Positions 314-64,000 of a DNA stretch of 64,000 bases are shown here, in pieces (within the stretch, counting starts at the first letter, position 1; every line of letters starts with the position of its first letter). The position numbers and the translations under genes were made by a program. A model generated the notes under the pieces. It saw only the letters and a list, made by a program, of their open reading frames with translations. It searched no databases and had not been told where the DNA came from. Source of the stretch: Squalus acanthias (lineage: Eukaryota); the NCBI GenBank assembly GCA_030390025.1, contig CM059437.1:94426001-94490000 (forward strand), given 5' to 3'.

Positions 314-1845
314 CGAATACAGAAAACACACACAGGAGTGCTACACCTCCGTAGTACAGATTATTTCTCTATTCAACACTCAGTTTGTAATTCTACCTCC
401 GAGTGTGGTAGTGACCCAAACAGACCAGAAAGGTTGCAGTTGGATCCTCAGTGCATGCTTGGTTAATGGATCTCCGCTAGGGTGGCAGTAGCCCAGAAAT
501 GCCTTTGTGCTTGTGTGAACTGGATTGGACTCAGCTGTGAAGCACTCTGCAGTTGTTTGCACTTGCCTTGAAGAATGGTCACTTGAGTGAAGTGAGATAC
601 CAGAAAGCTGCTGGAGTCCAGGGACCTGTACAAAAGTGTTATTTAGTGCCTTCAGCAGTGAAGGGCAGAAACTCTCACCCAACTCACTGTAACTCCAGTT
701 TGGCATCATTATGCTTTAAAATGCTCCCTTCACGTCCTGTTATACAATGGCAGCAGAAAAATTCTGTGCTCATAATGGCAGCAATAGTGGAAGATACAAC
801 TCCAAAGGGACAGCTCCAAATCGATAAGAAGTATGGAACTTATTTAAAAAAACACTGCTTTGGAAGATGTTCAAGGCTCTAACGCACTATGAGTTTGGAC
901 ACGACTTGGAAATTGCTCTAAGGGTATATGCCGAATCCCTTGAGTATATTACTGCCTTGTAACACTCTCCCAGTCATCATTTATTCTCTATTTGAATGGC
1001 AGAGCACATTAGTTACTACACAAGACTTTCCTGTTCATTTTACAATGGATGCAATCCAATAACAATGCTTTATGGACTTTCCAAGCTTAAGTCAGTTCCC
1101 ATCTGTAATAAAATGTCAGCCTACGCCTTTACTACGAATCCGAACTATTAAAAATCTGCATTTTCATGTAGAGTATAGGATAAATTAGTCATATATTTCA
1201 ATAGAACAATTAGTAATTTGTTTCACAATGATAACTAATTTCCACAAGACATTCGGTAAAATCTTAGTATGAGTTATTCATTCTAAACTGCAAGGTGTGA
1301 AATACTGCAATATACCAGTAAATGAAAGTGAGATCAATACTGACATTAGGATTTTAAATTGGCCACAAACAGCATATCCACATATTATTCGGATAATTTT
1401 AATACAGTTAGCAAATGAGAAAGGCAACGTAACGGATTGGCTGTGTTCAGATAGTTGACCTCAATTTAAAATCAAAGACTGAAGGAAGTGAAGTATTTTG
1501 ACAATTTCAGGGTAATCAAAAATTGGAAAGCTTCAGTTCAAGTTTATTTCAATGGAAGAACCTTGACTAAGTCATAATGTACTAGCTAACCATGGTGATG
1601 AAACCAGTCTCTCTGCCTTTGGCAATAAAGCCTAGAACCAATTTAGCTTTTTAATCTTTACTCTCTTACAAACTACTGCAAGACTTCCAGGATTGAATAT
1701 AATTATAGTTAGTGAATGCAAAAAAGTGGCTAATTAAATACATTAAATTAATTTACTGGCTTTCTCAATACTTTAAGCTAAGACTGATAGAGATCTATCT
1801 CGCACCTGTAATCTGGTGCCAAAACAGCACTGGATACCTGTTGAA

Positions 1846-1945
1846 TTTTGACAAAAGGTCTTAACTCAAAATATTAACTTATCTTCTCATAGTTCCATCA
1901 TTTTCTGTTTTTATTTCAGATTTCCATTATTTAATTTTTCTTTTA
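1846..1945 (+). mobile_element. Degenerate copy of Penelope-type mini-element
   Basis: ttttgacaaaaggtc..aaaatattaact..cattttctgtttttatttcagatttcca aligns by eye with the copies at 11878 and 21347. Confidence 0.6.
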
Positions 1946-4066: not shown

Positions 4067-4750
4067 ACTGCTTTAAAATCATTTCTACGAATGTCTAAGA
4101 TAGACCAGGGATATTCTCAACTCATGCTAATAATTTTGTGCTCTGCCAACCGATGATGCTTCCTGAAAAAATTACATTAAATGGTAGACTTCCACATGGA
4201 CAATTATACTCTCTCAATTTTACCTTTTCTTTCTTGCATTTATAGATATCTTAGAGTTATGGAGAAAAGATTCTTCTTTAAAATAATTTTGATGCACATA
4301 GTTTGGCAAGTTTTAGAAAATCTTTTATTCCTTTCTTCACCTACCTAGACTGGCACCAGTAGCCAGGTGGGCAGGCTGCCACGAATGTCACCTGTGCAAG
4401 TATGCTTTTCTCTTCCTCCTGCTGACAGACTTTGCAGCCTGTGTATTGCATCCTCCCATTTAATACTTTACAGATTGGCAACAAATCAGCGCGAAACTCT
4501 AACCTTCCACCATCGCTGGTCTGTGGCACAGAGCAATCAATTTATTCTTATGGGTATTTGGGTCTTTAAATGCCATTAAAAACACCATAAACTGAAATAT
4601 ATTCCATGCTTGCCCTACCATTTGGTCATCACAAAAGAGTAATATTTAGTGAGCCCCAGCTTCAGGGTGCATCATCTGTTAGAACACATGTCTGATCACA
4701 TTCAAGGAGGGAGCTTGGAAAGCACGAACAAACAAGATGTGCAAACAAAA

Positions 4751-4843
4751 CGACGAAAGGTCATCAACCTGAAACGTTAACTCTGTTTCTCTCTCCACAG
4801 AGGCTGCCTGACCTGCTGAGTATTTCCAGCATTTTCTGTTTTT
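4751..4843 (+). mobile_element. Penelope-type mini-element, partial
   Basis: gacgaaaggtcatcaacctgaaacgttaactctgtttctctctccacagaggctgcctgacctgctgagtatttccagcattttctgttttt, near-identical to the 11878 and 21347 copies. Confidence 0.8.
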
Positions 4844-4879
4844 AAGATGTACAAACAATTTGGCTGTGAATTGTCAAGT

Positions 4880-5325
4880 GTCAGCTGTGGCTCAGTGGGT
4901 AGCACTCTTGCTTCTGAGTCAGAAGGTTATGGGTTCAAGTCCCACTCTAGAGATTTGAGCACAAAAATCTAGGCTGACACTCCAGTGTAGTGCTGAGGGA
5001 GTGCTGCACTGTCGGAGGTGCAGTCTTTTGGATGAGACGTTAAACCGAGGCCCCGTCTGTTCCCTCAGGTCGATGTAAAAGGTTACATGACACTATTTTG
5101 AAGTGGTGGGGAGTTCTCCCCGGTGTCCTGGCCAATATTTATCCCTCAATCAACATCACTAAAACAGATTATCTGGTCATTATCACATTGCTGTTGGAGC
5201 TTACTGTGCGCAAACATTACAACAGTGACTACACTTCAAAAGTACTTCATTGCTGTAAAGTGCTTTGGGATGTCCGGTGGTGGTGAAAGGCGCTATATAA
5301 ATGCAAGTCATTCTTTCTTTCTTTG
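4880..5325 (+). mobile_element. DeuSINE (SacSINE1-like), near full length
   Basis: tRNA-type head with A box tggctcagtggg and B box ggttcaagtccc; Deu-domain core gctgagggagtgctgcactgtcggaggtgc..gatgagacgttaaaccgagg; L2-like tail aaaggcgctatataaatgcaag followed by (tctt)n. Confidence 0.85.
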
Positions 5326-11319: not shown

Positions 11320-11660
11320 CTCACCCGACCTGTGTGATGTCCTCTAGCCCTATGTTCCTATACTTCTCTAACCCTCTGCTCCTCTAACACTAGGCTTCTC
11401 TTTGTCCAGCTCCACCAGTGGTGGCCTTTCATTCAGTCATGATACTGCTGTATTCTGGAATTCCTCCACCTTTCCACCTCCACCCCTGCTTTCAAAAAAC
11501 TCCCAAAAAGCTCATCTCTTTGACTGTGCTTTAGGTTCCCATCCTAGCCTCTCCATTGCCCCACCCCCATCCTCGGTGCTCACCATGTCCTTTTCCTCCT
11601 TATCGGAAACACTCTGGGACATCTTCTTGCAGATGGGTACTGTATAAGTGCAAGTTATCA
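11320..11660 (+). mobile_element. Old L2 3' fragment
   Basis: ccaccagtggtggcctttcattcag..ctggaattcc..tgtataagtgcaagtt resembles the L2 3' end. Confidence 0.6.
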
Positions 11661-11665
11661 TTCTC

Positions 11666-11740
11666 TCTTTACATTATGGAGGAGAGAACAGTGGACGCCA
11701 AGCAGGAGGAGAAAAAGTGAAAAGCGGCGACAGTCAGGGT
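11666..11740. repeat. Inverted copy of 12095-12169
   Basis: tctttacattatggaggagagaacagtggacgccaagc..gacagtcagggt is the reverse complement of accctgactgtc..gcttggcgtccactgttctctcctccataatgtaaaga, with a few mismatches. Confidence 0.9.
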
Positions 11741-11879
11741 TTCTGAGATTGGCTGCTAGTAGTGCCAAGATTACTCTGAAACAAAGGCCTAGAATGCTGG
11801 GCTTCTTTATTTGGGGGAGGGGGGTGTGGGGGGAGGAAAGGATTAGAATCCGTCACTGGCCTAACCTCTCCTCTGCCCA
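11739..11879. repeat. Direct copy of 12222-12362 (~141 bp)
   Basis: gtttctgagattggctgct..ggcctaacctctcctctgccca occurs twice with few differences; the ORF track shows the same peptide GRGEVRPVTDSNPFLP twice. Confidence 0.95.
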
Positions 11880-12015
11880 GTTCTGACGAAGGGTCATCGA
11901 CCTGAAATGTTAACTCTGTTTCTCTCCCCACAGATGCTGCCTGACCTGCTGAGTATTTCCAGCATTTTCTGTTTTTATTTCAGATTTCCAGCATCTGCAG
12001 TATTTTGCTTTTGTA
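11878..12015 (+). mobile_element. Penelope-type mini-element (hammerhead motif plus 3' arm)
   Basis: cagttctgacgaagggtcatcgacctgaaatgttaactctg..gatgctgcctgacctgctgagtatttccagcattttctgtttttatttcagatttccagcatctgcagtattttgcttttgta. Confidence 0.8.
11879..11915 (+). ncRNA. Minimal type-I hammerhead ribozyme-like motif (stem III CpG decayed)
   Basis: AGUU-CUGACGA-A-GGGUC/AUC/GACCU-GAAA-UGUU-AACU; stem I AGUU pairs with AACU. Confidence 0.5.
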
Positions 12016-12021
12016 TTATTA

Positions 12022-12224
12022 TTCTCCCTGCCTTGCTATCTCCCTCCATGCTTTGAAAATTCTAAAAACTCTTCAACAATGTCTTCGGCTCCTCACCCTG
12101 ACTGTCGCGTCGTTTCACTTTTTCTGCTCGGGCTTGGCGTCCACTGTTCTCTCCTCCATAATGTAAAGAACTTTGAGACATGTTCCTGCACGTAAGGAGT
12201 GCTATAGAAAAGCAAGTTGTTGTT
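12022..12224 (+). mobile_element. Old L2 3' tail
   Basis: tgtaaagaactttgagacatgttcctgcacgtaaggagtgctatagaaaagcaagttgttgtt. Confidence 0.65.
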
Positions 12225-13732
12225 TCTGAGATTGGCTGCTCGTAGTGCCATGATTACTCTGAAACAAAGGCCTAGAATGCTGGGTTTCCTTATTTGGGGG
12301 AGGGGGGTGTCGGGGGAGGAAAGGATTAGAATCCGTCACTGGCCTAACCTCTCCTCTGCCCACAGCATGACTGTCTTTGGATGCATCAATGTCAGTTATC
12401 AAGCATTTAGACAGCAAATCTGCCGACTGCTTGCCAGATGATGCCTTGCTATAGACGTCAAAACTACAGTGAAATCTGACAGTCTTTTAAGTTTTTGTGG
12501 TTGCAAAGAAGAAAGCACTTTTTGATCTTTCAGACAGCATTTTATATTTTTTTTCCATCAGTAAGTCCAGGATTCTGGTAAACTAGGTCACTGTGCTGTA
12601 AATCTCCATATCCCTAAGGATACACTAGTGTTAGGCTGTTCATTTAGAAATATGAAGCAATTCCTACTGGAATAGGCAACTCCTGTGAATTTCACTGAAC
12701 TCCACAATTTGGGTCATTTCACATTATACATCATTCTCAATTTATGCAGATGCTATATTCTCTTAAAGGGCAGGGGTCTGTAAACAGTGCAAGAACTGAT
12801 GTTTTTGTTTGTTTCAGATATCCCTGGCACACAATGATTGAATACTGTTTTAACAATAAATTCTATACATATTAGGGAATACAGCAGCTATTTAATTACC
12901 TTATAATGCTTCAAAAACGAGATTAGGCCTGTTTTCTCCGACTAAAATTATTGCGTGTCAGAAATTTTTAGGGACCACTTTACTGGATAATTAGGGTAAA
13001 TTAATCAATTTTTAAAATTCTTGATTACAGCTTCTTGCAGATCCAATATAATGGGTAATTTCAGAAATCTTTATGCTTCACACACGAGTCTGCCATAACT
13101 GCTTAACTATAATTCAAAGGACTGGTGAGTATATGAATAATCAACAGACTTCAACATGGTAACCAAGGCAAAGAATTTAAATTGCTATTTATATTCTGTA
13201 GTTGTTTATATATGATTACTAAATTTGTGTAAATCCATATCTTTTCTTCCTAATTTTTCCCACTTGTTTTTTTAAAATGAACCTTTTTGGAGAATTTGCC
13301 ATTCATTTGTGAGCCTAGACAATATGTTGGTATCATGTCCTCGGCCAACATTCACACCAAGACAACTAAGTATCAATCAGGAGTGGAGGCCAATTTTAAT
13401 GCCTCAACTAATGCCCTAGCTCAGTTAAAATGGAAGTAAACAGGAATTGAACCTGGAACCTTCTGGTTTGAAGGGGTGGTGCTTTTACCCAGACACGCCA
13501 ACCTACAAAACTCAGAAAAGCCGAGTAAGCCTCCAAAATAGTGAAAACTCAAAATATAGCATACGACTAAAAACAGCCCTAAATAAAAGCTCATGATTAA
13601 GGCCACAGCTTTAAGACAACTGAATAAGTTAAAATCATTTATATTACATTGGATTTCCAGATTTTTATTAGTATTTTGGGATCAAATTCTGTAATTCAGT
13701 TTATTTTTCTCTGAAAACTGAAACCTTGTGGC

Positions 13733-20450: not shown

Positions 20451-21263
20451 ATTAACTAAGCGGCACTTAATGTGGTGAGATATTCAGTAATACATACTGG
20501 CACATAGAAAACATGCACAATAGATAGGTATTGATCAATAAAAGGAGGAGAAAAATGTAAGTACGATTATTGCTCATGCACTCAAGTAATAAACATTGCC
20601 AGCAAGTTGAATCGTGTCTTGGAATGCACCTACCAATTAAAATTGAAAACCACAATAGGATTATCTTAACCTTATACAACTCCCAGATAAGAATGACAGA
20701 ACCAGAAATCTCTGTCTTTATTTATTTCACATGATTTTAAAATAGATTCACAAAGGAATAGTTCGGTTCAAAGCGGATGGTGCTCTTTCTTTGCTCAGTT
20801 TCAAAATGGAAGTTTGGAGACAGCCAGCTTGTAATGGGACAGTGCTTTATGTTCGGAAATCAAAGTTATTTTGGTTTAAAATGGTTTGGTTGAAATGCTA
20901 AGTATGTCCTGTCTGCTGGATGTAAGTAACCTGAGTTTGGGTAGACTCAATCCATTTCTTAATGAGCATGAACCTCCAGCACAAAACTGTCCTTCATTTG
21001 GTACTAATTGACAATGTTACTCAGATAGGCCTAAGGATGGTTGTTGTGGAAAATGAAAAAAAAAGTCACAGTGATACAAGTAGGGGGTGCTCTTCTAAGA
21101 CTGGGGTTGTTGCACACGGAGTGGTGGGATTTTTGCTCTGTATCTGGCTGGGAGAGCTCATGGTGACGCTAGGTTCAAAAAGATTTGGAAGATCTAAGTA
21201 AATCTAGCACAACAAGGAGATGGCTAGTATGGATAAGGCAGCCTAGCTTATAATACTGGAGTA

Positions 21264-21481
21264 AAAACAGAAAATGCTGGAAATACTCAGCAGGCCAGGC
21301 AGCATCTGTAGAGAGAGAAACAGAGTTAACGTTTCAGGTCGATGACGGTTCTGACGAAGGGTCATCAACCTGAAACGTTAACTCTGCTTCTCTCTCTACA
21401 GATGTTGCCTGACCTGCTGAGTATTTCCAGCACTTTCTGTTTTTATTTCAGATTTCCAGAATCCGCGGTATTTTGCTTTTG
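21264..21481. mobile_element. Penelope-type insertion with inverted 5' arm (fold-back) and 15-bp TSD
   Basis: ~21262-21346 is the reverse complement of ~21361-21445; TSD tataatactggagta at 21249-21263 and 21482-21496. Confidence 0.85.
21347..21383 (+). ncRNA. Minimal type-I hammerhead ribozyme-like motif
   Basis: GGUU-CUGACGA(21351-57)-stem II-GAAA(21372-75)-CGUU-AACU; self-complementary AACGUU stem III, predicted GUU cleavage triplet. Confidence 0.55.
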
Positions 21482-21496
21482 TATAATACTGGAGTA

Positions 21497-29932: not shown

Positions 29933-30357
29933 AAAAGAAAGAACTTGCATTTACATAGAGCCTGTCATGATCTCAGGATGTCCCAAAGTGCTTTACAACC
30001 AAGTACCTTCGAAGTGTAGTTAGTGTTATAATGTAGAAAATGCGGCAGACAATTTGCGCATAGCAAGTTCCCACAAAGAGCAATGTGATAATTGACCAGA
30101 TAATGTGTTTTAGTGATGTTGGTCGAGGAATAAATATTGGCTCCTTATTTGCTCTTCTTCAAATAATGGGATCTTTTACATCTACCTGATGGGACAGACA
30201 GGGCTTCGGTTTAACGTCTCATCTGAAAGACAGTGCAGCGCTCCCTCAATACTGCACTGGAGTGCCAACCTAGATTTTGTGCTCAAGTCTCCGGAGTGGG
30301 ACTTGAACCCACAACCTTCTGACTCGGAGGCGAGAGTGCTGCCCACTGAGCCACAGC
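29933..30357 (-). mobile_element. DeuSINE (SacSINE1-like)
   Basis: Reverse complement of the 4880 element, including A/B boxes (cccactgagccacagc; gggacttgaacc) and tail. Confidence 0.85.
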
Positions 30358-47735: not shown

Positions 47736-47747
47736 CATTTCATTCAA

Positions 47748-47879
47748 CAGTGTAGCACTCCCTCAGTACTGCCCTTAAGTGTCAGCCTAGATTATGTGCT
47801 CAATTTTCTGCAGTGGGGCTTGAACCCATGACCTTCTGGTCTCCAAGGTCAGAGTGCTACCACTGAACCAAGGTTGACA
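47748..47879 (-). mobile_element. DeuSINE 5' fragment
   Basis: gcactccctcagtactg..gtgtcagcctagatt..ggcttgaacccatgaccttctg..gagtgctaccactgaacc. Confidence 0.75.
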
Positions 47880-50800
47880 CCAGTAAATTTAATATAGAGG
47901 AGATACTATTTTTTGTTTTATTTTATGCAATTCAGCACATTATGCAGAATATTATTCTTGTGGTTGAAATATGCTTGTGCGCTGTAATATTCAAGAATAT
48001 TTTGGTACTCAAAGGGGATATCATCCAATTTCATTTCTCTTTTTTGCTCGAGAAAAGATCAGAATCTTAAATATCTAAGTGTCTGTAGTTTTAAAGCTGT
48101 TGGTGCTGTTATTAAATGGTAGCAAGTTGAAACAGGAACGTAAGTGAATACATTATTGCTAAATTCTTCCACTAAATTATTGCTTAATTGTGCAGCCATC
48201 CTAAAACGGAAAAAGGCAATTACTCAGAAGAAAAGCTACATCTGTCAGATTTTGAATGTGTCTAGTGAAATGACCTTCGAAACATCTCTGCTGACTAAAG
48301 CACACCACCCACCATTTGACAGTAGTGATAATGAAGCGAGAAAAAAGTGATGGGAAAGTTTTGTCAGTGCAACCAACAGCTCACTTTTAGTGCGAGTCAC
48401 GCTGCAGGGAGAAAACACCTTCATCTGCCACAGCAGTGCTTTAACCTCTTGTGTCATCACATCTCAAGGGACTGAAGGAAGCAGCACTCCAAATCAACCT
48501 CCTGGACCATACTGAATTTGTGAAATCAACAAATTATATTATTAACTTAGAAAAATATTTTATGCTCCACTATTTTCTTGATTAATTTGACTCACTTCCT
48601 TATGTTCCACAGTTCTCTAAATTGTTACAATCATTGGGGTCTATGAAGGACTTGTTAAAACCAGACAAGCGAAGCCAGACTGAGTGCAAACACTAGAAGC
48701 TCGACACATTTAAAAATATTAATAACTGAGTAACATGAGCAGTAAGATTTCTTGACTCTCAACCAGAAGGTCATGAGTTAAGAGTCCCAGGGATACTTGT
48801 CACTCCAACTAGCTCAACTCGGTTGGTTGAGTTCCATCCGCTCTCAGCCAAGCTGCTGGGTGGAACACTGCACCATTTCAGAGGGGGTAGGGGTGGAGGT
48901 GGCTAAGCTGACACAGGTCAATCTGCACCACTGAACCTTGCTCGTTGCTAACCAATTATGAAGCAGCACTGTCAGTAGGTAGAAAGCTCTGCGACCCAGA
49001 CTATTCTGCCCTCTTATTTGTAGCGGACTGGGTCACTGGTTAGCAACACAGTTGTGTGTGCGAGAAAAATCAGAAATTTAAACAAACAAAATGTAAAAGG
49101 GAGAGGGGAATTCTGTGCATATAGCTCAGCTACTTTAAAAAAAAAAGTTTTCCCTCCTTCTGTACCAGTAACTGCAGGTGATATTAAAGAGACCAAGTTT
49201 CCTTGAGGACCATCATCTTCCAAATTTACTTAAAAAATAGATGTGTCAAAAGATTCAACATATATCGCAGGAACAAGATAGTACACTTGAAGTTATTCAT
49301 AACATGTGTAAAACATTTCTTTGAGCGCTGTTAAAATGTCAAAGCTTTGAGGAGCACGGACTTCATAACTTTCCCATAGATATATTGAATTTCTATGCAT
49401 TGCACCATTATACCACCAGCAGTTTGACTATATTCTTCACCACATACCCAAAAACATTTGAGTGAAAATTTACACTCTTTTAGGAATAGAAATTTGTAGC
49501 TCAGAAGGAGGCCACTCTTGCCTTGTGCTGAGTTCAGGCCCCTCACAAAGGTTAATTTTACACAGTCCCATTTATAGAAATAGAGATCTCAGCTACCCAA
49601 GATTTTCTTGTCAAAGTTAATTAAGTCAGAAAATGTTTCAAAAATGTTTCAAAAGTTTACAAAATACTTGCGCTCATAAACAGCCAGTCAGTGCTTGAAC
49701 ACAATGCTAATTTCATGCTACTTTGATGGAGGCTCCCAATCCTAGCTACAGGGGCATCAATTTCATTCATTATCCAGACTCCAGAGTGCAGTGTTTGCTG
49801 AGGCAGAAATATCATACCTCAGGAGAAAACTGACAATTTTCTGTCTGTCTTGCCAGTCTACATTTCAAGCTGATAGATGAGAATGGAACAACACTGGCAC
49901 GTGAGGTTATGGAAGAGTCTGCCACTTGTCTGTCAAGAGAGCAGCGTCCCCAATGACCACAAGTAAAAAAAGCTGGGAGAAAAAAAATGAAGATCTTCTG
50001 GCCAATTAAAGAATGAACACGAGACACGACCTCAGCCACTAAAAGATTCTCTTTTATCCATCATAGCCATTTTGTAAATTTAGCTTATTGGTATAAGTCT
50101 GCAACCCCAGTCTGTAAATATACTTTATATTATAATTTATCAATTGCTACACAAGTCACAGAATTAGTGACCCTAGTTTGAAAGCTACAAGACTCCACCA
50201 TTGTTCAGCATCATTCATGTACAGCCTCAGTGTATCCACAGTATCACCTAACAGCCAGCACGCCTAATTGACCCAATTTCGTAGAGTACTGCTTTGAAAG
50301 AAATTCTCACTAAAAAAATCAACAAACCAATTAAGACTGAAGAGAAAAAGACAGATCTGTTGCGACACGTATGCTAATTAATAAAGCATTCCAAAGGACA
50401 GAAGTAACAAGCCTTTTTTTTTATTGTGAGGCATATTTCTAGTGGAGCCATGAAAATTCATGAGAAGACAAGATCAGCACAATGAACTCTGTTGTCAACC
50501 CTTCCTGTTCAGAGGTCCCAATTAAGACAGGAAGCTGCCACCTACAGATCATCTGATTTGTCAGATGAGAAGCCAGTGCCTGAAACAATCAGATAAGCAT
50601 TGTGCATTAAATCTGATTATGGTCCTATCTGCACCAGTAAAGGCCCTGCAGAATATTATCTGTCACTAATATCCTTTACCCACAGCATGCTCAGTTCTAA
50701 CAACAGGCCTTTTGCTGCATTCTGCTACCAGGATAACAAAGTACACCTGTTAGAAATGGTGGCACTCGTCTAATTCACCAATATTTTTAAGAAGTGAACA

Positions 50801-51099
50801 AACACTCTGGAGTCAAGAAAAATACAAGAGCGCAACTGATCTGATAGAACTTTCCAGGAAGGGTTTAGATACATCATTATACAGGAAACTCTCGTTTAAA
50901 CGGCACCTAAATATCCGGAATTCTCCATTAACCGGCAAAATTCATACTCCGAAAACAACTCCTCAATAACCGGCAATGTTGCCGAGTCCGAGTCTCCTGC
51001 GAATGCCGAGTTAGTCAGTGGGGGTAGTTCTCCAAACTGCCACTACTCGGCTTCCTGGCGCTGTCGGAAGTCCGAACACCGCAATAACAGGAGTCTGAT

Positions 51100-51243
51100 T
51101 CTCCCGCGCTGCCGGTAGTCTCTTCTGATCCGCCATTTTACTGTGTGTCTCCCGCGCTGCCGGTAGTCTCTTCTGATCCGCCATTTTACTGTGCGTCTCC
51201 CGCGCTGCTAGTAGTCTCTTCCGATCCACCATTTTTCTGTGTG
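51100..51243. repeat. 3 x 48-bp tandem repeat in the transposon 5' region
   Basis: Unit tctcccgcgctgccggtagtctcttctgatccgccattttactgtgtg at 51100, 51148 and 51196. Confidence 0.95.
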
Positions 51244-51285
51244 TCTCTCCATCTTTATCGTGAATTATCTCCCCCATCTTGCATT

Positions 51286-53007
51286 ATGGAATTCCCAAAA
51301 GTCGGTCCAAGCAAAAGGAAGAGAGTGGTGTTAACTTTAAAACAGAAAATTGAGATATGCCAACGACTAGAAAGGGGAGAGAAGCGTATCAACATTATGA
51401 ATGAATTCAAAATCGGTTCGTCAACAATCTACGACATCAAATCGCAGAAGGATAAGCTGCTCAAGTTTTATTCAAGCTCGGAGACATCTAAGAGTGTAGA
51501 GAAATGGCGTACGCTTCGTAAGCCTAAGCTTGAAGAGCTGGATACCGTGCTTTATGAGTGGTTTTCTCTTAAGCGTTCAGAGGGTGTTCCACTTTCCGGA
51601 CCCATGCTAATCGAGAAAGCGAAGGATTTCTACGTAAGGATGGAGCTCACTGACAAGTGTGCTTTCTCCGAGGGATGGCTAATGTGCTTCAAGTTACGGC
51701 ACAGGATACGACGACTCGATATTTCCAGGGAGAAGAAATCAGCTGATCACGACACCGCAGAAGAATACTGCGATTATTTCAATCGGATTGTGCAGCAACA
51801 TGATTTGTCACCAGCACAGATATATAATGCCGATGAAACTGGCTTATTTTGGAGGTTTTTGCCAGAATCAACGCTTGCTGGGGCTAGTGAGGCTAATGCT
51901 TCAGGTTACAAGAAAAATAAAGATCGTGTAACCGTGCTAACGCTGCTGGATCACACCGGGTTAAACTTCTTGTTATTGGGAAGTATAAAAATCCCCGTGC
52001 ATTTAAAAATGTGAGGCACTTACCTGTTGAGTACAAAGCTCAAAAAAATGCTTGGATGGATAAGGAAATCTTTTCGTATTGGTTCCATCATATTTTTGTT
52101 CCATCTGTGAGGGAACATTTCCGTAAAATAGGGAAACCTGAAGATAGCAAATGCATTTTATTGCTTGATAATTGTAGAGCCCATCCGCATGAATCCGAGT
52201 TGGTTTCGGGAAATATTTTCACCATTTATTTGCCACCAAATGTAACATCTCTCATACAACCCATGGACCAGGGCGTTATCCAAAATCTGAAGTGTCATTA
52301 CAAGAAAGACTTCCTACGTAAACTGATAAACCAAGATGACAATATTCACGCATTTCAGAAGGAATACAATCTTAAAGATGCCATCCTGGAACTTGGTGAA
52401 AGGTCACACTCTGAGGCAAGCCTGGCGCAAATTGTGGCCTTCTGTAATGTTTGCTGAAGGTTCTTCTTCAGAGGAGGAATTTCATGGGTTCAATCTTCGT
52501 CTCAAGAAGAGTACAATAATGGAAATGGCTGGCATGGTGAAAAATGTAGGCCATCTACGTCACCTCAGTGAAAGTGATATCGAGCAGTGGGTTGATGCAG
52601 ATAGAGAAGTTGGTGTTGTGCATATGCTAAGTGATGATGAAATAATTGAGAATGTTTTGAATCCAAAGAAAGAAAAGGAAAATGAGATGGAAAGTGAAGA
52701 GGATGAGATTTCTGAAGAGAAGAAGATTGCTTGGGCTAAAGCTGCAGAAGGATTTGCTTCAATCCTCCAATTTGCTGAAAGGCAGCCTTGCTACTCTGCC
52801 CAAGAAGTTATGCACCTCCATATTCTGCATTCCACCTTTCTACAGAAAAGGCATGAGTCCACTAAGCAAGCAGGCATCTGGGACATGTTTAAGAAAGCTT
52901 CCAAAAGAGTTGAAGCAGCGGAAGTGCCTGAAGAATCTGTTGAAGTGCATGATCCTGATGACCCAGCTGGCATGGATATTCCTGATGAACCAGCTGACTT
53001 GAAATAA
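51286..53007 (+). pseudogene. Tigger (jerky/TIGD-like) transposase with two frameshifts
   Basis: ATG 51286; [15 protein letters not shown] (HTH_psq), [18 protein letters not shown] (CENP-B HTH), [18 protein letters not shown] and QPMDQG with 32 residues between the last two Asp; frameshifts near 51936 and 52386; stop at 53007. Confidence 0.9.
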
Positions 53008-53568: not shown

Positions 53569-54484
53569 GGGCTGGATTTTGCCAATGGGGAGCTTTTGGA
53601 GGCGGGACTCCCATTTGTCGGGTTTCAGTCCCGCCTCCATCAACTTCTGGCCAACCCATGCCATTTTCCCTTGATTGACCTTGTTAAGCCCGCCCAGCCA
53701 ATTAAAGGAAAGCCAGTTACAGAGAACGTCAACGTATGACGTTTCATCTGTCAAAAATGGGCAACACGGTGGCATAGTGGTTAGCACTGGTGCCTCACAG
53801 CGCCAGAGACCCGGGTTCGAATCTGACCTCGGGTGACTGTCTGTGTGGAGTTTGCACATTCTCCCCGTGTCTGCGTGGGTTTCCTCCGGGTGCTCCGGTT
53901 TCCTCCCACAGTCCAAAAATGTGTGGGTTAGGTTGATTTGGCTATGATAAATTGACCCTTAGTGTTAGGGGGGGATTAAATATGTGGGGTTACAGGGATA
54001 GGATGGGAGATGTTAGGGGGAATTAAATACGTGGGGTTACGGGGATAGGGTGGGATATGTGTCAGTGCAGGCTCGATGGGGATTCTGTGTGGGAGGGCAG
54101 GGACAGGGTACTGGATTTGGATGATCAGCCATGATCGTATTGAATGGCGGAGCAGGCTCGACGGGCCGAATGGCCTACTCCTGCTCCTAGATTCTATGTT
54201 TCTATGTTTCTATGACAGATGAATTGCCTTCGTTTGACAGCTCTGTGAAGCTGTGGATAATCCTCTTATCTGCCTGTTAATTACCTGTTAACTGGCAGTT
54301 AAGTGGCTGTAATCCCTTCCCGCCTCCAAAGAGACAGGACCCAGCGTGGGACGGCTACCCACCTTCTGGCAAGATGGCACGGAGGTGGGTTGGGGGCAGG
54401 TTGGGCACCCGCCTCCAGATTCTGCCATTTTGCCAACTGTCCCGCCTCCAAACCCGCCTCCCCAGGCCTGGCAAAATCCAGCCC
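53569..54484. mobile_element. Harbinger-like MITE with nested SINE
   Basis: 16-bp TIRs gggctggattttgcca / tggcaaaatccagccc; subterminal ggaggcggg / cccgcctcc repeats; flanks caa / gaa (possibly a decayed 3-bp TSD). Confidence 0.75.
53759..54213 (+). mobile_element. V-SINE (HE1-like)
   Basis: tRNA head gtggcatagtggttagcact..gggttcgaatc; V-domain tgtgtggagtttgcacattctccccgtgtctgcgtgggtttcctccgggtgctccggtttcctcccaca; CR1 tail with (ttctatgt)n; internal ~47-bp duplication at ~53963-54060. Confidence 0.9.
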
Positions 54485-54502
54485 GAAGGATGAGGTTATT
54501 TC

Positions 54503-56497
54503 ATTATCGGGTCCTGCTCTTGTCTGCCAAAATTGCTCACTATTCCAGAATCATTCTGGAATGCAAAGATAAACCCCGGCTCCTATTCTCTACTGCTAGC
54601 CGTCTTCTTAAACCCCTCTCCCCTGTCTCCTCCACCCTCACCTCCGATAACAAATGTGAGGAGCTCATGGACATCTTTGTCTCTAAGATTGAGACCATCT
54701 GTTCAGCTGCCTCTGCCACTTCCCTTCCTTCCCCTAGCCCACTGGGCCAAGCTTCCTCTAAGGTTCCCCCCTGCCCTAGCCCTGAATTCACATCTTTCTC
54801 CAGTTTCTCTCCGATCTCCCCTCATGACCTCTCCGTGCTCATCTTGTCCACGAGATCCACCTCCTACTCCCTCAACCCTTTTCCCACCAAATTGCTGACC
54901 ACCCAACTTCCTTTTCTGGCTCCCATGTTAGCTGACATTGTTAACGGTTCTCTTTCCTCAGGTACTGTCCCCCTCTCCCTCAAATCTGCCGTCATCACCC
55001 CTCTCCTCAAAAAATCAACCCTTGATCCCTCCGTCCTTTCAAACTACTGCCCCATCTCCAACCTCCCTTTCCTCTCCAAAGTCCTTGAATGTGTTGTCGC
55101 CTCCCAAATCTGTGTCCATCTTTCCCGCAATTCCATGTTTGAATCGCTCCAATCAGGTTTCCGCCCTTGCCACAGTACCAAAACGGCTCTCATCAAAGTC
55201 ACGAATGACATCCTTTGTGACTGTGACAAAGGTAAACTATCCCTCCTCATTCTTCTTGACTTGTCTGCAGCCTTTGACACGGTTGACCACTCCATCCTTC
55301 TCCAACGCCTCTCCACCGTCGTCCAGCTGGGTGGGACTGCACTCACCTGGTTCCATTCTTCTTTCTCTAAGCGTAGCCAGAGAATCACCTGCAATGGCTT
55401 CTCTTCCCGCTCCCGCATCGTTACCTCTGGTGTCCCCCAAGGATCTATCCTTGGCCCCCTCCTATTTCTCATCTACATGTTGCCCCTTGGCGACGTCATC
55501 CGTAAACACAGCATCAGTTTCCACATGTACGCTGACGACACCCAGCTCTACCTCACTACCTCTTCTCTCAACCCCTCCACGGTCTCTAAATTGTCAGACT
55601 GCTTGTCCGACATACAGTTCTGGATGAGCAGAAATTTTCTCCAATTAAATATTGGGAAGACCTAAGCCACTGTTTTCGGTCCCCGCCACAAACTCCGTTC
55701 CCTAGCCACTGACTCCATCCCTCTTCCTAACATCTGTCTGAGGTTGAACCACACTGTTCGCAACCTTGGTGTCATATTTGACTCTGAAATAAGCTTCCGA
55801 CCACATATCCGCAGCATAACAAAGACCGCCTATTTCCACCTCCATAACATCGCCCGTCTCCGCCCTTGCCTCAGCTCATCCGCTGCTGAAACCCTCATCC
55901 ATGCCTTTGTTACCTCTAGACTTGACTATTCCAACGCACCCCTGGCTGGCCTCCCACATTCTACCCTATGTAAACTTGAGGTCATCCAAAACTCGGCTGC
56001 CCGTGTCCTAACTCGCACCAAGTTCCGTTCGCCCATCACCCCTGTGCTCGCTGACCTACATTGGTTCCCGGTTAAACAGCACCTCGATTTCAAAATTCTC
56101 ATCCTTGTTTTCAAATCTCTCCATGGCCTCGCCCCTCCCTATCTCTGTAATCTCCTTCAGCCCCATAACCCCCAGAGATATCTGCGCTCCTCTAATTCTG
56201 CCCTCTTGAGCATCCCTGATTATAATCGCTCCACCATTGGTGGCCGTGCCTTCCGTTGCCTAGGACCGAAGCTCTGGAATTCCCTGCCTAAACCTCTCCA
56301 CCTCTTTCCTCCTTTAAGACGCTCCTTAAAACCTACCTCTTTGACCAAGCTTTTGGTCACCTGCCCTAATTTCTCCTTATGTGGCTCGGTGTCAAATTTT
56401 TGTTGTCTTATAATACTCCTGTGAAGCGCCTTGGGACGTTTTATTACGTTAAAGGCACTATATAAATACAAGTTGTTGTTGTTGTTGTTGTTGTTAT
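54503..56497 (+). mobile_element. L2-clade LINE, 5'-truncated, young copy with RT domain
   Basis: NYCPISNLPFLSKVLE, QSGFRP.HST.TAL, LDLSAAFDTVDH, GVPQGSILGPLLFLIY, YADDTQLY; one in-frame stop at 55663-65, then the same frame continues (AETLIHAFVTSRLDYSN); (gtt)n tail. Confidence 0.95.
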
Positions 56498-56629: not shown

Positions 56630-57091
56630 AAAAAAGAAAGACTTGCATTTCTATAGCGCCTTTCACGACCACCGGACGTCTCAAAGAGCTTTACAGCCAA
56701 TGAAGTACTTTTTGAAGTGGAGTCACTGTTGTAATGTGGGAAACGCGGCAGCCAATTTGCGCACAGCAAGGTCCCACAAACAGCAGTGTGATAATGACCA
56801 GATAATCTGTTTTAGTGATGTTGGTTGAGGGATAAATATTGGCCAGGACACCAGGGAGAACTCCCCTGCTCTTCTTCGAAATAGTGCCATGGGATCTTTT
56901 ACGTCCACTTGAGAGAGCAGACGGGGCCTCGGTTTAACGTCTCATCTGAAAGACGGCACCTCTGAGACGGTGCAGCATTCCCTCAGCACTGCACTGGAGT
57001 GTCAGCCTCGATTTTTGTGTTCAAGTCTCTGGAGTGGGACTTGAACCCACAACCTTCTGACTCAGAGGCGAGTGCGCTACCAACTGAGCCA
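56630..57091 (-). mobile_element. DeuSINE (SacSINE1-like), near full length
   Basis: Reverse complement of the 4880 element with many CpGs retained. Confidence 0.9.
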
Positions 57092-62044: not shown

Positions 62045-64000
62045 TCTTCTTTTTCTTCTTAGGCAGTCCCTCGGAACCGAAGATGACTTGCTTCCACATT
62101 AAAAATGAGTTCTCAGGTGACTGATGAGTCCAATGTGGGACCTACAGTCTCTGTCACAGGTGGGGCAGACGGTGGTTGAAGGGGCAGGTGGGTGGGGTGC
62201 TTGGGTTGACGTGCGCTCCTTCCGCTGTTTGCGCTTGGCTTCCGCTTGCTCCCGGCGATGAGACGTGAGGTATTCGGCGCCTTCCCGGATGCTTCTCCTT
62301 CACTTTGTACGGTCTTGAGCCAGGGATTCCCAGGTGTCGGTGGGGATGTTGCACTTTTTCAAGGAGGCTTTGAGGGTGTCCTTGAAGCGTTTCCTCTGCC
62401 CACCTGGGGCTCTCTTGCCGTGTCGGAGCTCCGAGTAGAGCGCTTGTTTTGGGAGTCTCGTATCGGGCATGCGGACGATGTGACCCATCCATCGGAGCTG
62501 AGCGAGCGTGGTCAAAGCTTCGATGCTGGGGATGTTGGCCTGAGCGAGAACACTGACGTTGGTGCGCCTATCCTGCCAATGGATTTGCAGGATCTTGCGG
62601 AGGCAGCGTTGGTGGTACATCTCCAGTGCTTTGAGGTGCCTGCTGTACATGGTCCATGTCTCTGAGGCATACAGGAGGGCAGGTATTACTGCTGCTCTGT
62701 AGACCATGAGCTTGGTGCCGGGTTTGAGGTCCTGGTCTTCAAACACTCTCTTCCTCAGGCGACCGAAGGCTGCACTGGCACACTGAAAGCGGTGTTGGAC
62801 TTTGTCATCGACGTCTGCCCTTGTTGACAGTAGGCTCCCGAGGTATGGAAAGTGGTCCACGGTTGTCCAAGGCCTGGTCATGGATTATGATAATCGGGGG
62901 GCAGTACTGTGTGGCGGGGGCAGGTTGGTAGAGGCCCTTTGTCTTACGGATGTTTAGTGTAAGGCCCATGCTCTCGTACGCTTCGGTGAAGGTGTTAACG
63001 ATGGTTTGGAGTTCGACCTCCGAGTGTGCGCAGACGCAAGCGTCGTCTGCATACTGTAATTTGACGACAGAGGAAGGGACGACCTTGGACCTGGACTGGA
63101 GGCGACAGAGGTTGAACAGTTTCCCGTTTGTTCTGTAAATTAGCTCCACTCCAGCGGGGAGCTTACTGAGGGTGAGATGGAGCATTGCCGCAAGGAAGAT
63201 CGAGAAGAGCGTTGGTGCGATGACACAGCCTTGCTTGACCCCAGTCCGTACAGGAATTGGGTCTGTGGTGGAACCGTTGGTCAGGATCACGGCTTGCATG
63301 TCGTCGTGAAGCAGGCGGAGGATGGTGACAAACTTTTGAGGGCAGCCGAATTTGAGGAGGACACTCCATAATCCCTCACGATTGACAGTGTTAAAGGCCT
63401 TTGTGAGGTCAAAGAAGGCTATGTACAGCGGTTGGTGCTGTTCCCTGCATTTCTCTTGTAATTGGCGTGAGGTGAAGATCATGTCCATTGTGCCCCTTAG
63501 TGGGCGGAATCCGCATTGCGACTCTGGGAGGAGCTCTTCAGCCACTGGGAGAAGGCGATTGAGGAGGATTCTTGCGATGACTTTCCCTGTGGCAGACAGC
63601 AGGGAAGCTCCTCTGTAATTACCGCAATCGGACTTGTCACCTTTCTTGAAGATGGTCACAATTACGGCATCTCTGAGATCCCCTGGCATGCTCTCCTCCT
63701 TCCAGATAAGAGAAATTAGTTTATGAATTCGCGCCAGTAGTGCTTCTCCGCCATGCTTTAGCGCCTCGGCAGGGATTCCATCTGCTCCTGAGGCCTTGTT
63801 GTTCTTCAGTTGTCAGATGGCCTTTTCAACCTCATGGGGTTGTGCTGAGATGGTGGCGGGTAGCATGCTGCGGGATGGAGTTGAGGACACTCGCGTCGAA
63901 GACAGAGTCTCGGTTAAGGAGATCTTCTAAGTGCTCCTTCCAGCGGGCACTGACTGCCTCCCTGTCCTTGATGAGTACCTCTCCGTTCTTGGCCCGCATT
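62045..64000 (-). mobile_element. RTE-clade LINE, 3' ~2 kb, continuing beyond the window end
   Basis: GNYRG.SLLS..GKV, LPESQCGFRP.RGT.DMIF..RQLQEKCREQ, FFDLTKAF, GVKQGCVIAPTLF, LQYADD; frameshift near 62880, stop at 62300; (gaa)n-like tail. Confidence 0.95.

Follow-up and report, generated by a model that had tools for sequence, protein, structure and literature searches.

Minimal hammerhead ribozymes reside in the pseudo-LTRs of metazoan Penelope-like elements (PLEs), and solo copies of them, which number thousands per genome and also occur as pairs on opposite strands, have been interpreted as PLEs that were probably truncated (Cervera and De la Pena, 2014, PMC4209133). For these minimal PLE hammerheads, low or protein-dependent activity has been reported. 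Among the standard features of PLEs are an optional tail of 30-40 bp, strong truncation from the 5' side and, next to the insertion, a truncated copy in inverted orientation (Arkhipova et al., 2013, PMC3846280; Craig et al., 2021, PMC8557442). Moreover, the purified PLE protein of a lizard nicks and extends both strands, prefers AT-rich DNA and begins reverse transcription at two internal RNA sites, for which uncleaved RNA suffices (Frangieh et al., 2024, PMC11167929). Earlier work has already described tails, inverted arms and isolated minimal hammerheads at truncated PLE ends; a description of the particular shark family analyzed here was not found in the literature searched, whose coverage left out most subscription journals and Repbase.

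Here, hammerhead-bearing repeats were analyzed in a 64-kb stretch of DNA from Squalus acanthias (the window, in which all positions are counted). Self-BLAST and a profile search detected five repeat arms at E < 0.001, and beyond these five no window match was better than E 1.5. The direct arm at 21347..21481 on the plus strand comprises a minimal hammerhead and an arm of ~100 nt including a tail of ~37 nt. It abuts an inverted arm on the minus strand (21264..21346), which begins inside stem II without CUGANGA and ends at the first U-rich end site without the tail. Three further stubs lie on the plus strand: a full-length stub with tail and retained core at 11877..12015, where the family match reaches ~11877; a short stub without tail at 4749..4843, which begins at G5 of the core (position 4752) after three filler bases; and a decayed stub at 1843..1926 with an internal deletion of ~28 nt and a broken core. 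The four copies named in the original prediction (~1846, 4751, 11878 and 21347) are all present and form a family beyond chance by BLAST, whereas their count has to be raised to five arms, the inverted arm at 21346-21264 having been overlooked. In pairwise comparison to the 11880 copy, 21348-21487 was matched with an E value of 8e-55 and 4752-4844 with one of 2e-37. Identity among the four well-kept arms was 92.5-95.2%, as compared to 62-81% between the 1846 copy and the other arms; the 3' piece of the latter (1890-1926) was matched by BLAST at E 2e-11, and 4 of 1000 random segments did as well as its head region. The repeat family is confirmed to lie far above chance expectation and the 1846 copy is a decayed member of it. 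The differing decay that had been noted among the copies is borne out, and copies of different ages are supported.

The predicted minimal type I hammerhead motif of the direct arm spans 21347..21383 on the plus strand and consists of stem I (21347-50/21380-83, 4 bp, GGUU/AACU), the core CUGACGA (21351-57), stem II (21359-62/21368-71, 4-5 bp) and GAAA (21372-75), with a GUU triplet, a self-complementary ACGU and a predicted cut after 21379. The core is followed by one extra A, inserted between positions 9 and 10.1, and pair 10.1-11.1 is G-U, not G-C, in both intact copies; stem I at 11879 reads AGUU/AACU. The full core (CUGANGA, GAAA and NUH triplet) is kept in two of the five arms (21347 and 11880) and missing in the other three, from truncation or decay, which does not agree with an (agtt)CTGACGA head common to all four copies as it had been described: the 4752 arm begins at G5 after bases unrelated to the core, and the 1846 copy is without some core bases. 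Similarly, a palindromic stem III had been ascribed to all copies, but in the 11880 copy a C>T change at 11908 disrupts the helix III palindrome, so that this palindrome and the full core occur together in the 21347 arm only. In the decayed copy, U3 and A8 replace C3 and G8 (1847-1853), a core covariation reported in Schistosoma PLE hammerheads; here, these are probably two separate decay changes, because G12 has been lost as well.

The focal 21347 copy is one half of a palindrome: positions 21264-21481 form one 218-nt head-to-head palindromic insertion with 96-nt arms that are 91% complementary. The arms are unequal at their ends, and both outer ends lie at 3' end sites, a different site each. 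This insertion is flanked by a 15-nt target-site duplication (TSD), the left copy of which (21249..21263, plus strand) is identical at 15/15 positions to the right copy (21482..21496, plus strand). A 15-nt TSD with 14/15 identical positions (4734-48 and 4844-58) surrounds the 4749-4843 stub, and a likely TSD of 14 nt with 12/14 identical positions (11655-68 and 12016-29) surrounds the insertion at 11669-12015. Three of the four insertions have such a duplication (15, 15 and 14 nt, exact or nearly so), and none was found around the 1843-1926 copy. The duplication at the 11880 copy appears once the ~210 nt adjoining its 5' end, which were copied from nearby DNA (11669..11879, no strand assigned), are included: 11666-11740 (75 nt) is an inverted copy of 12095-12169, and 11739-11879 (141 nt) is a direct copy of 12222-12362, with overlaps of 2-3 nt at each template switch in 11655-12362. 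This region is probably a templated insertion that arose during integration, inside the likely 14-nt TSD. Matches of 1-3 nt were observed at the insertion joints, with a likely 3-nt microhomology at the 5' joint of the 11880 copy. A candidate for a further inverted arm, decayed and located upstream of the 1846 copy, was rejected, as 476 of 1000 random segments scored equally well.

Taken together, we read the five arms as 3'-terminal pseudo-LTR stubs of an endonuclease-bearing (EN+) PLE that arose by target-primed reverse transcription of an RNA probably not cut by the ribozyme, with a probability of about 0.72. The PLE origin assumed in the original prediction is supported; the motif fits the PLE consensus, and tail and TSDs fit a PLE. 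Following this, we propose that the PLE protein would nick both strands of an AT-rich site ~15 nt apart, and that reverse transcription would then be primed by a freed 3' end at an internal position of the RNA, which is either of two U-rich sites ~35 nt apart, with the 1-3-nt matches at the joints helping the priming. The cDNA would reach a length of ~85-135 nt before synthesis halts, in these copies close to the head of the ribozyme, and filler or microhomology would serve to join the 5' end. In the case of 21264-21481, both nicked strands were likely primed, one per site, and the two cDNAs would have been joined head to head, while at 11669-12015 the second end likely copied host DNA 80-350 nt away before joining. 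The hammerhead would ride along in the pseudo-LTR, and the borders of the insert would not be set by it. Self-priming on an antisense template has been proposed as another origin of such palindromes (PMC3846280) and may be an alternative source of the one at 21264-21481.

The ends of the arms within the window bear on the role of the ribozyme. Counted from the C of CUGA, the 5' starts lie at about -4 (21347), -3 to -6 (11880) and about -3 (decayed copy), and at +3 (4752) and +11 (inverted arm). All five are located within ~15 nt of each other, a clustering that exceeds what wide random truncation suggests, and they are not identical; the same 5' boundary that had been claimed for the copies turned out to be a spread of up to ~15 nt. 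All five arms begin 19-33 nt upstream of the predicted scissile bond, and a copy of a self-cleaved RNA would begin just after GUU. As this upstream stretch is retained, we infer that the template RNA was not cut there. The hammerhead-bearing stubs are not cleavage-delimited, contrary to the ribozyme-delimited unit of the original prediction, and they are probably not a new ribozyme-bounded mini-element. At the 3' side, the 4752 arm and the inverted arm stop at the first U-rich site, whereas two others reach ~37 nt further; a unit of ~135 nt does not describe the former two.

Furthermore, contigs of four of 24 sequencing runs were aligned to 11840-12060 as the reference. Matches to this reference were found for at least 130,392 of 26,540,285 contigs in run X1 (organism A), for 70,178 of 47,771,682 in X7 (organism B, with about half of the run covered), for 42,951 of 15,978,756 in X10 (organism C) and for 8,397 of 1,268,777 in X15, which derives from the same sample as X1, is presumed by guess to be RNA and may contain DNA. 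The family is very abundant. Loose ends and joints are reported here from the 24 of 966 loose-end entries and the 15 of 531 joint entries listed. Among these, clusters of 3' loose ends are found at 11979-80 and 12011-14 for X1, X7 and X15 and at 12006-14 for X10. The listed entries for X1 at the two clusters (11979-80, 12011-14) comprise at least 954, 914, 1928 and 1070 contigs, those for X7 comprise 635 contigs ending at 11979 and 2178 at 12012, and the one for X10 comprises 1589 at 12012. The flanks past the clusters are T-rich and mutually unlike (agreement 0.36-0.42). Two sharp 3'-end clusters ~35 nt apart are present in contigs of three organisms, and these two 3' ends match the optional 30-40-nt tail of PLEs. 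Opposite-strand joints from 11968-11980 to 12012, with at most 16 contigs per entry among those listed, were also seen in three organisms, which suggests tail-to-tail arrangements besides the head-to-head ones.

The 5' side of the contigs is central to a second reading, which we regard as unlikely: the repeats might be a dedicated short non-autonomous PLE derivative, similar to a SINE, which would have a 5' end of its own coinciding with the ribozyme head and an RNA of ~135 nt mobilized in trans, its shorter copies being truncations. The start of all five arms within ~15 nt of the core would be expected for such a derivative, position 11880 recurs in three of the 15 joint entries listed (of 531), the upstream family motif has no match in the window, and putative non-autonomous PLEs are known in Chlamydomonas (PMC8557442). 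By contrast, at 11877 at least 263 X1 contigs and 37 X15 contigs, all from one sample, run on into a common upstream sequence with a near-identical consensus and an agreement of 0.58-0.60, as compared to 0.36-0.45 in other entries. Among the entries listed, this continuation appears for organism A only, which may be the source of the window. With these contigs, the family is longer in some copies than the unit originally described. In addition, no 5' loose ends at 11878-11895 occur among the 24 of 966 entries listed, where no 5' end is as sharp as the 3' ends with their ~2000 contigs per position, the window arms do not share one start but are spread over up to ~15 nt, as given above, and truncation of any PLE gives the same anatomy.

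Several other features were seen around the head of the reference. The common upstream sequence ends with CTAAC, a T run and CCAG, abutting helix I, which we take to resemble a 3' splice site with an unusually close branch point, and also an initiator motif. Two deep X15 contigs (1676 nt at a depth of 554 and 1537 nt at a depth of 240) span the whole unit from 11877 with long flanks and are candidate transcripts of some longer element. At 11910, i.e., at the cleavage triplet, 331-414 contigs per run break in three DNA runs, with a partly common flank; as 5' ends, these were set aside as clipping or as another repeat at the triplet, and the motif adjoining 11910 gave two window matches, no more than expected by chance (11 of 100 shuffles). 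Clipping at a CT run was taken to underlie the loose ends at 11928, which were likewise set aside.

Sequencing depth in the four 5'-most bins amounted to 10-27% of that in the mirror-image 3' bins in X1, for which the counts are lower bounds, and to 2-10% in X7 and X10, and the 3' depth edge follows a simple 31-mer model. The low 5' depth is partly an artefact, because the bases of the reference at 11908, 11927 and 11942 are private to it or in the minority and because other subfamilies may have the tail without the ribozyme. In the region of helix I, 5' ends may be piled up over a broad stretch. We tentatively suggest, at odds well short of even, that an autonomous PLE makes its own SINE-like stubs, which would cause 5' ends to accumulate at the head of the ribozyme. 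Internal priming would then also hit the 5' pseudo-LTR of a full-length transcript and yield a short run-off cDNA, which would end at an RNA landmark just before helix I (a 3' splice site, a start site resembling an initiator, or the ribozyme itself, where bound protein would stop synthesis), and palindromes would then be built by priming from both nicked strands. The intron of the D. virilis Penelope ends at the corresponding position, beside helix I. If this suggestion were true, very many ribozyme-headed stubs would be explained without a non-autonomous master gene. Moreover, if 5' ends pile up at a splice or start site by helix I, breakpoint counts could serve as a test of PLE cDNA termination and also of the purpose of the ribozyme.

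A retrozyme origin, in which tandem units are excised by two hammerheads, circularized and reverse-transcribed by PLE proteins and the copies in the window are solo monomers, is very improbable. Non-LTR retrozymes akin to PLE pseudo-LTRs are present in the one cartilaginous fish sampled, and solo monomers of them exist (10.64898/2026.07.22.740005); four joints of the "goes back" type, which could reflect tandem units, are found among the 15 entries listed (of 531), but partial tandems are normal for PLEs too. A tandem arrangement of arms was found in none of the four insertions in the window, the borders are off the cleavage site, the copies are not circularly permuted, and the motif is minimal as compared to the canonical type I hammerheads of described retrozymes (PMC7229834). 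The retrozyme-like unit of the original prediction is not supported: no arm lies in a tandem array, and the sharp boundaries are the two 3' ends.

With regard to an autonomous partner, none of the 185 stop-to-stop ORFs of at least 70 aa in the window matched GIY-YIG in Pfam searches (0 of 185), in keeping with the earlier statement that no Penelope ORF lies beside the copies. A source element with reverse transcriptase and GIY-YIG and with the same terminus, which the original prediction had envisaged, is absent from these window ORFs. A 45-codon frame through the unit was compared to longer proteins, a weak test that gave two candidates and none at E <= 0.01. Pfam matches to reverse transcriptase (RVT_1) were found at 54313-55662 on the plus strand (remnant 54313-56424) and at 62808-63812 on the minus strand (remnant 62303-63812), both more than 30 kb from the nearest hammerhead arm. 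These two remnants are presumably LINEs of the L2/CR1 and RTE types, as judged from their motifs. The window also contains a Tc5/DDE transposase above the Pfam cut-off (51088-52454), part of a frameshifted transposase of the Tigger/pogo type at 51088-53007 (CENP-B_N, HTH_Tnp_Tc5, DDE_1) with a 48-nt tandem repeat at 51100-51247. Furthermore, a repeat of ~310 nt with tRNA-like boxes at its head occurs in four copies (4888-5195, 30076-30357, 47747-47880 and 56779-57091), which seem to resemble the shark HE1 SINE.

The hammerhead motif was also compared with known families and with chance. Rfam searches found no match to a hammerhead family, either in the window (E <= 5) or in 21330-21400 (E <= 10), and matches to mir-14 and mir-9201 were discarded as they only reflect the long palindrome. 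The minimal type I hammerhead predicted at 21347 stands with respect to its anatomy (stems, core, GUU triplet and ACGU) and lacks an Rfam match. The core-only pattern alone is not significant, with four window matches as compared to a mean of 1.96 in 50 shuffles. The ACGU self-duplex at 21347, as helix III of a dimer, has a predicted energy of -1.7 kcal/mol, and the predicted folds of lowest energy, of the monomer as well as the dimer, differ from the active hammerhead; monomer folds were no more stable than those of shuffles (z -0.44 and -0.94). Five loci with an exact match to the pattern (L001-L005, one locus from metagenomes and four loci from prokaryote genomes) were dropped as chance, with little match beyond the pattern, and an exact-pattern scan of viral contigs gave no loci. 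The setting of L001 is presumably a bacterial ribosomal-protein operon. That the repeat is not derived from a PLE at all, but is the tail of a LINE or SINE or a MITE-like palindrome with a hammerhead resemblance by chance, would be in line with the missing Rfam match, with a core-only pattern expected about twice per window, with the ordinary stability of the monomer fold and with the lack of a linked PLE ORF in the window, and is nevertheless very improbable, as the agreement with the published PLE consensus extends to the additional base that follows A9, to a stem I of 4 bp, to the palindrome of helix III and to the U-rich stretch upstream, as the two-site tail, the offset head-to-head arms and the 15-nt TSDs fit PLEs, and as the palindrome arms are unequal at their ends and three of the four insertions are single arms.

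In comparison with described systems, the motif resembles the minimal hammerheads of metazoan PLE pseudo-LTRs in its CUGANGAH core, the extra base before stem II, the short stem I, the palindromic loopless helix III and the U-rich upstream flank, and it differs from the usual form in pair 10.1-11.1, which is G-U here and G-C there (PMC4209133). That consensus follows a >80% rule, and entries with G-U include cichlids and Xenopus family 1; no cartilaginous fish is among the chordate entries in the portion of the survey examined (PMC4209133). The fit of the motif to the published minimal hammerhead of PLEs is supported by its predicted anatomy. Non-LTR retrozymes, which are also akin to PLE pseudo-LTRs (10.64898/2026.07.22.740005), share with the shark repeats a short, non-coding make-up and a type I hammerhead (Cervera and De la Pena, 2020, PMC7229834; Li et al., 2026, 10.64898/2026.07.22.740005). 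In contrast, their definition requires tandem units that together carry two or more ribozymes, an arrangement not seen in the window, and their monomers are cleavage-bounded with a circular RNA, whereas the window arms are not cleavage-bounded. The shark copies fail both retrozyme features tested, i.e., tandem units and cleavage-bounded borders.

The likeness to EN+ PLE units (Arkhipova et al., 2013, PMC3846280; Craig et al., 2021, PMC8557442) extends to head-to-head arms offset at the centre, a one-sided tail, a TSD around the whole unit, microhomology joins and solo pseudo-LTRs. The insertions described here differ in being only 95-220 nt long and without an ORF, and their TSDs measure 14-15 nt as compared to 8-10 nt in rotifer PLE examples. 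As in the Poseidon PLE PAc from Anolis carolinensis (Frangieh et al., 2024, PMC11167929), the hammerhead lies ~100-150 nt upstream of two tail-defining starts of reverse transcription and targets are AT-rich. Nicking and extension of two strands and the use of an uncleaved template have been shown for PAc and are proposed here, and the ORF of PAc starts at stem II, whereas the shark copies are known as ORF-less stubs. On these sequence-level tests, the shark copies fit the end of an EN+ PLE that has been truncated and carries a minimal hammerhead. The 218-nt palindrome would be a clean genomic example of the product expected from two-strand priming at two internal start sites, and it matches the PLE result obtained in vitro in 2024.
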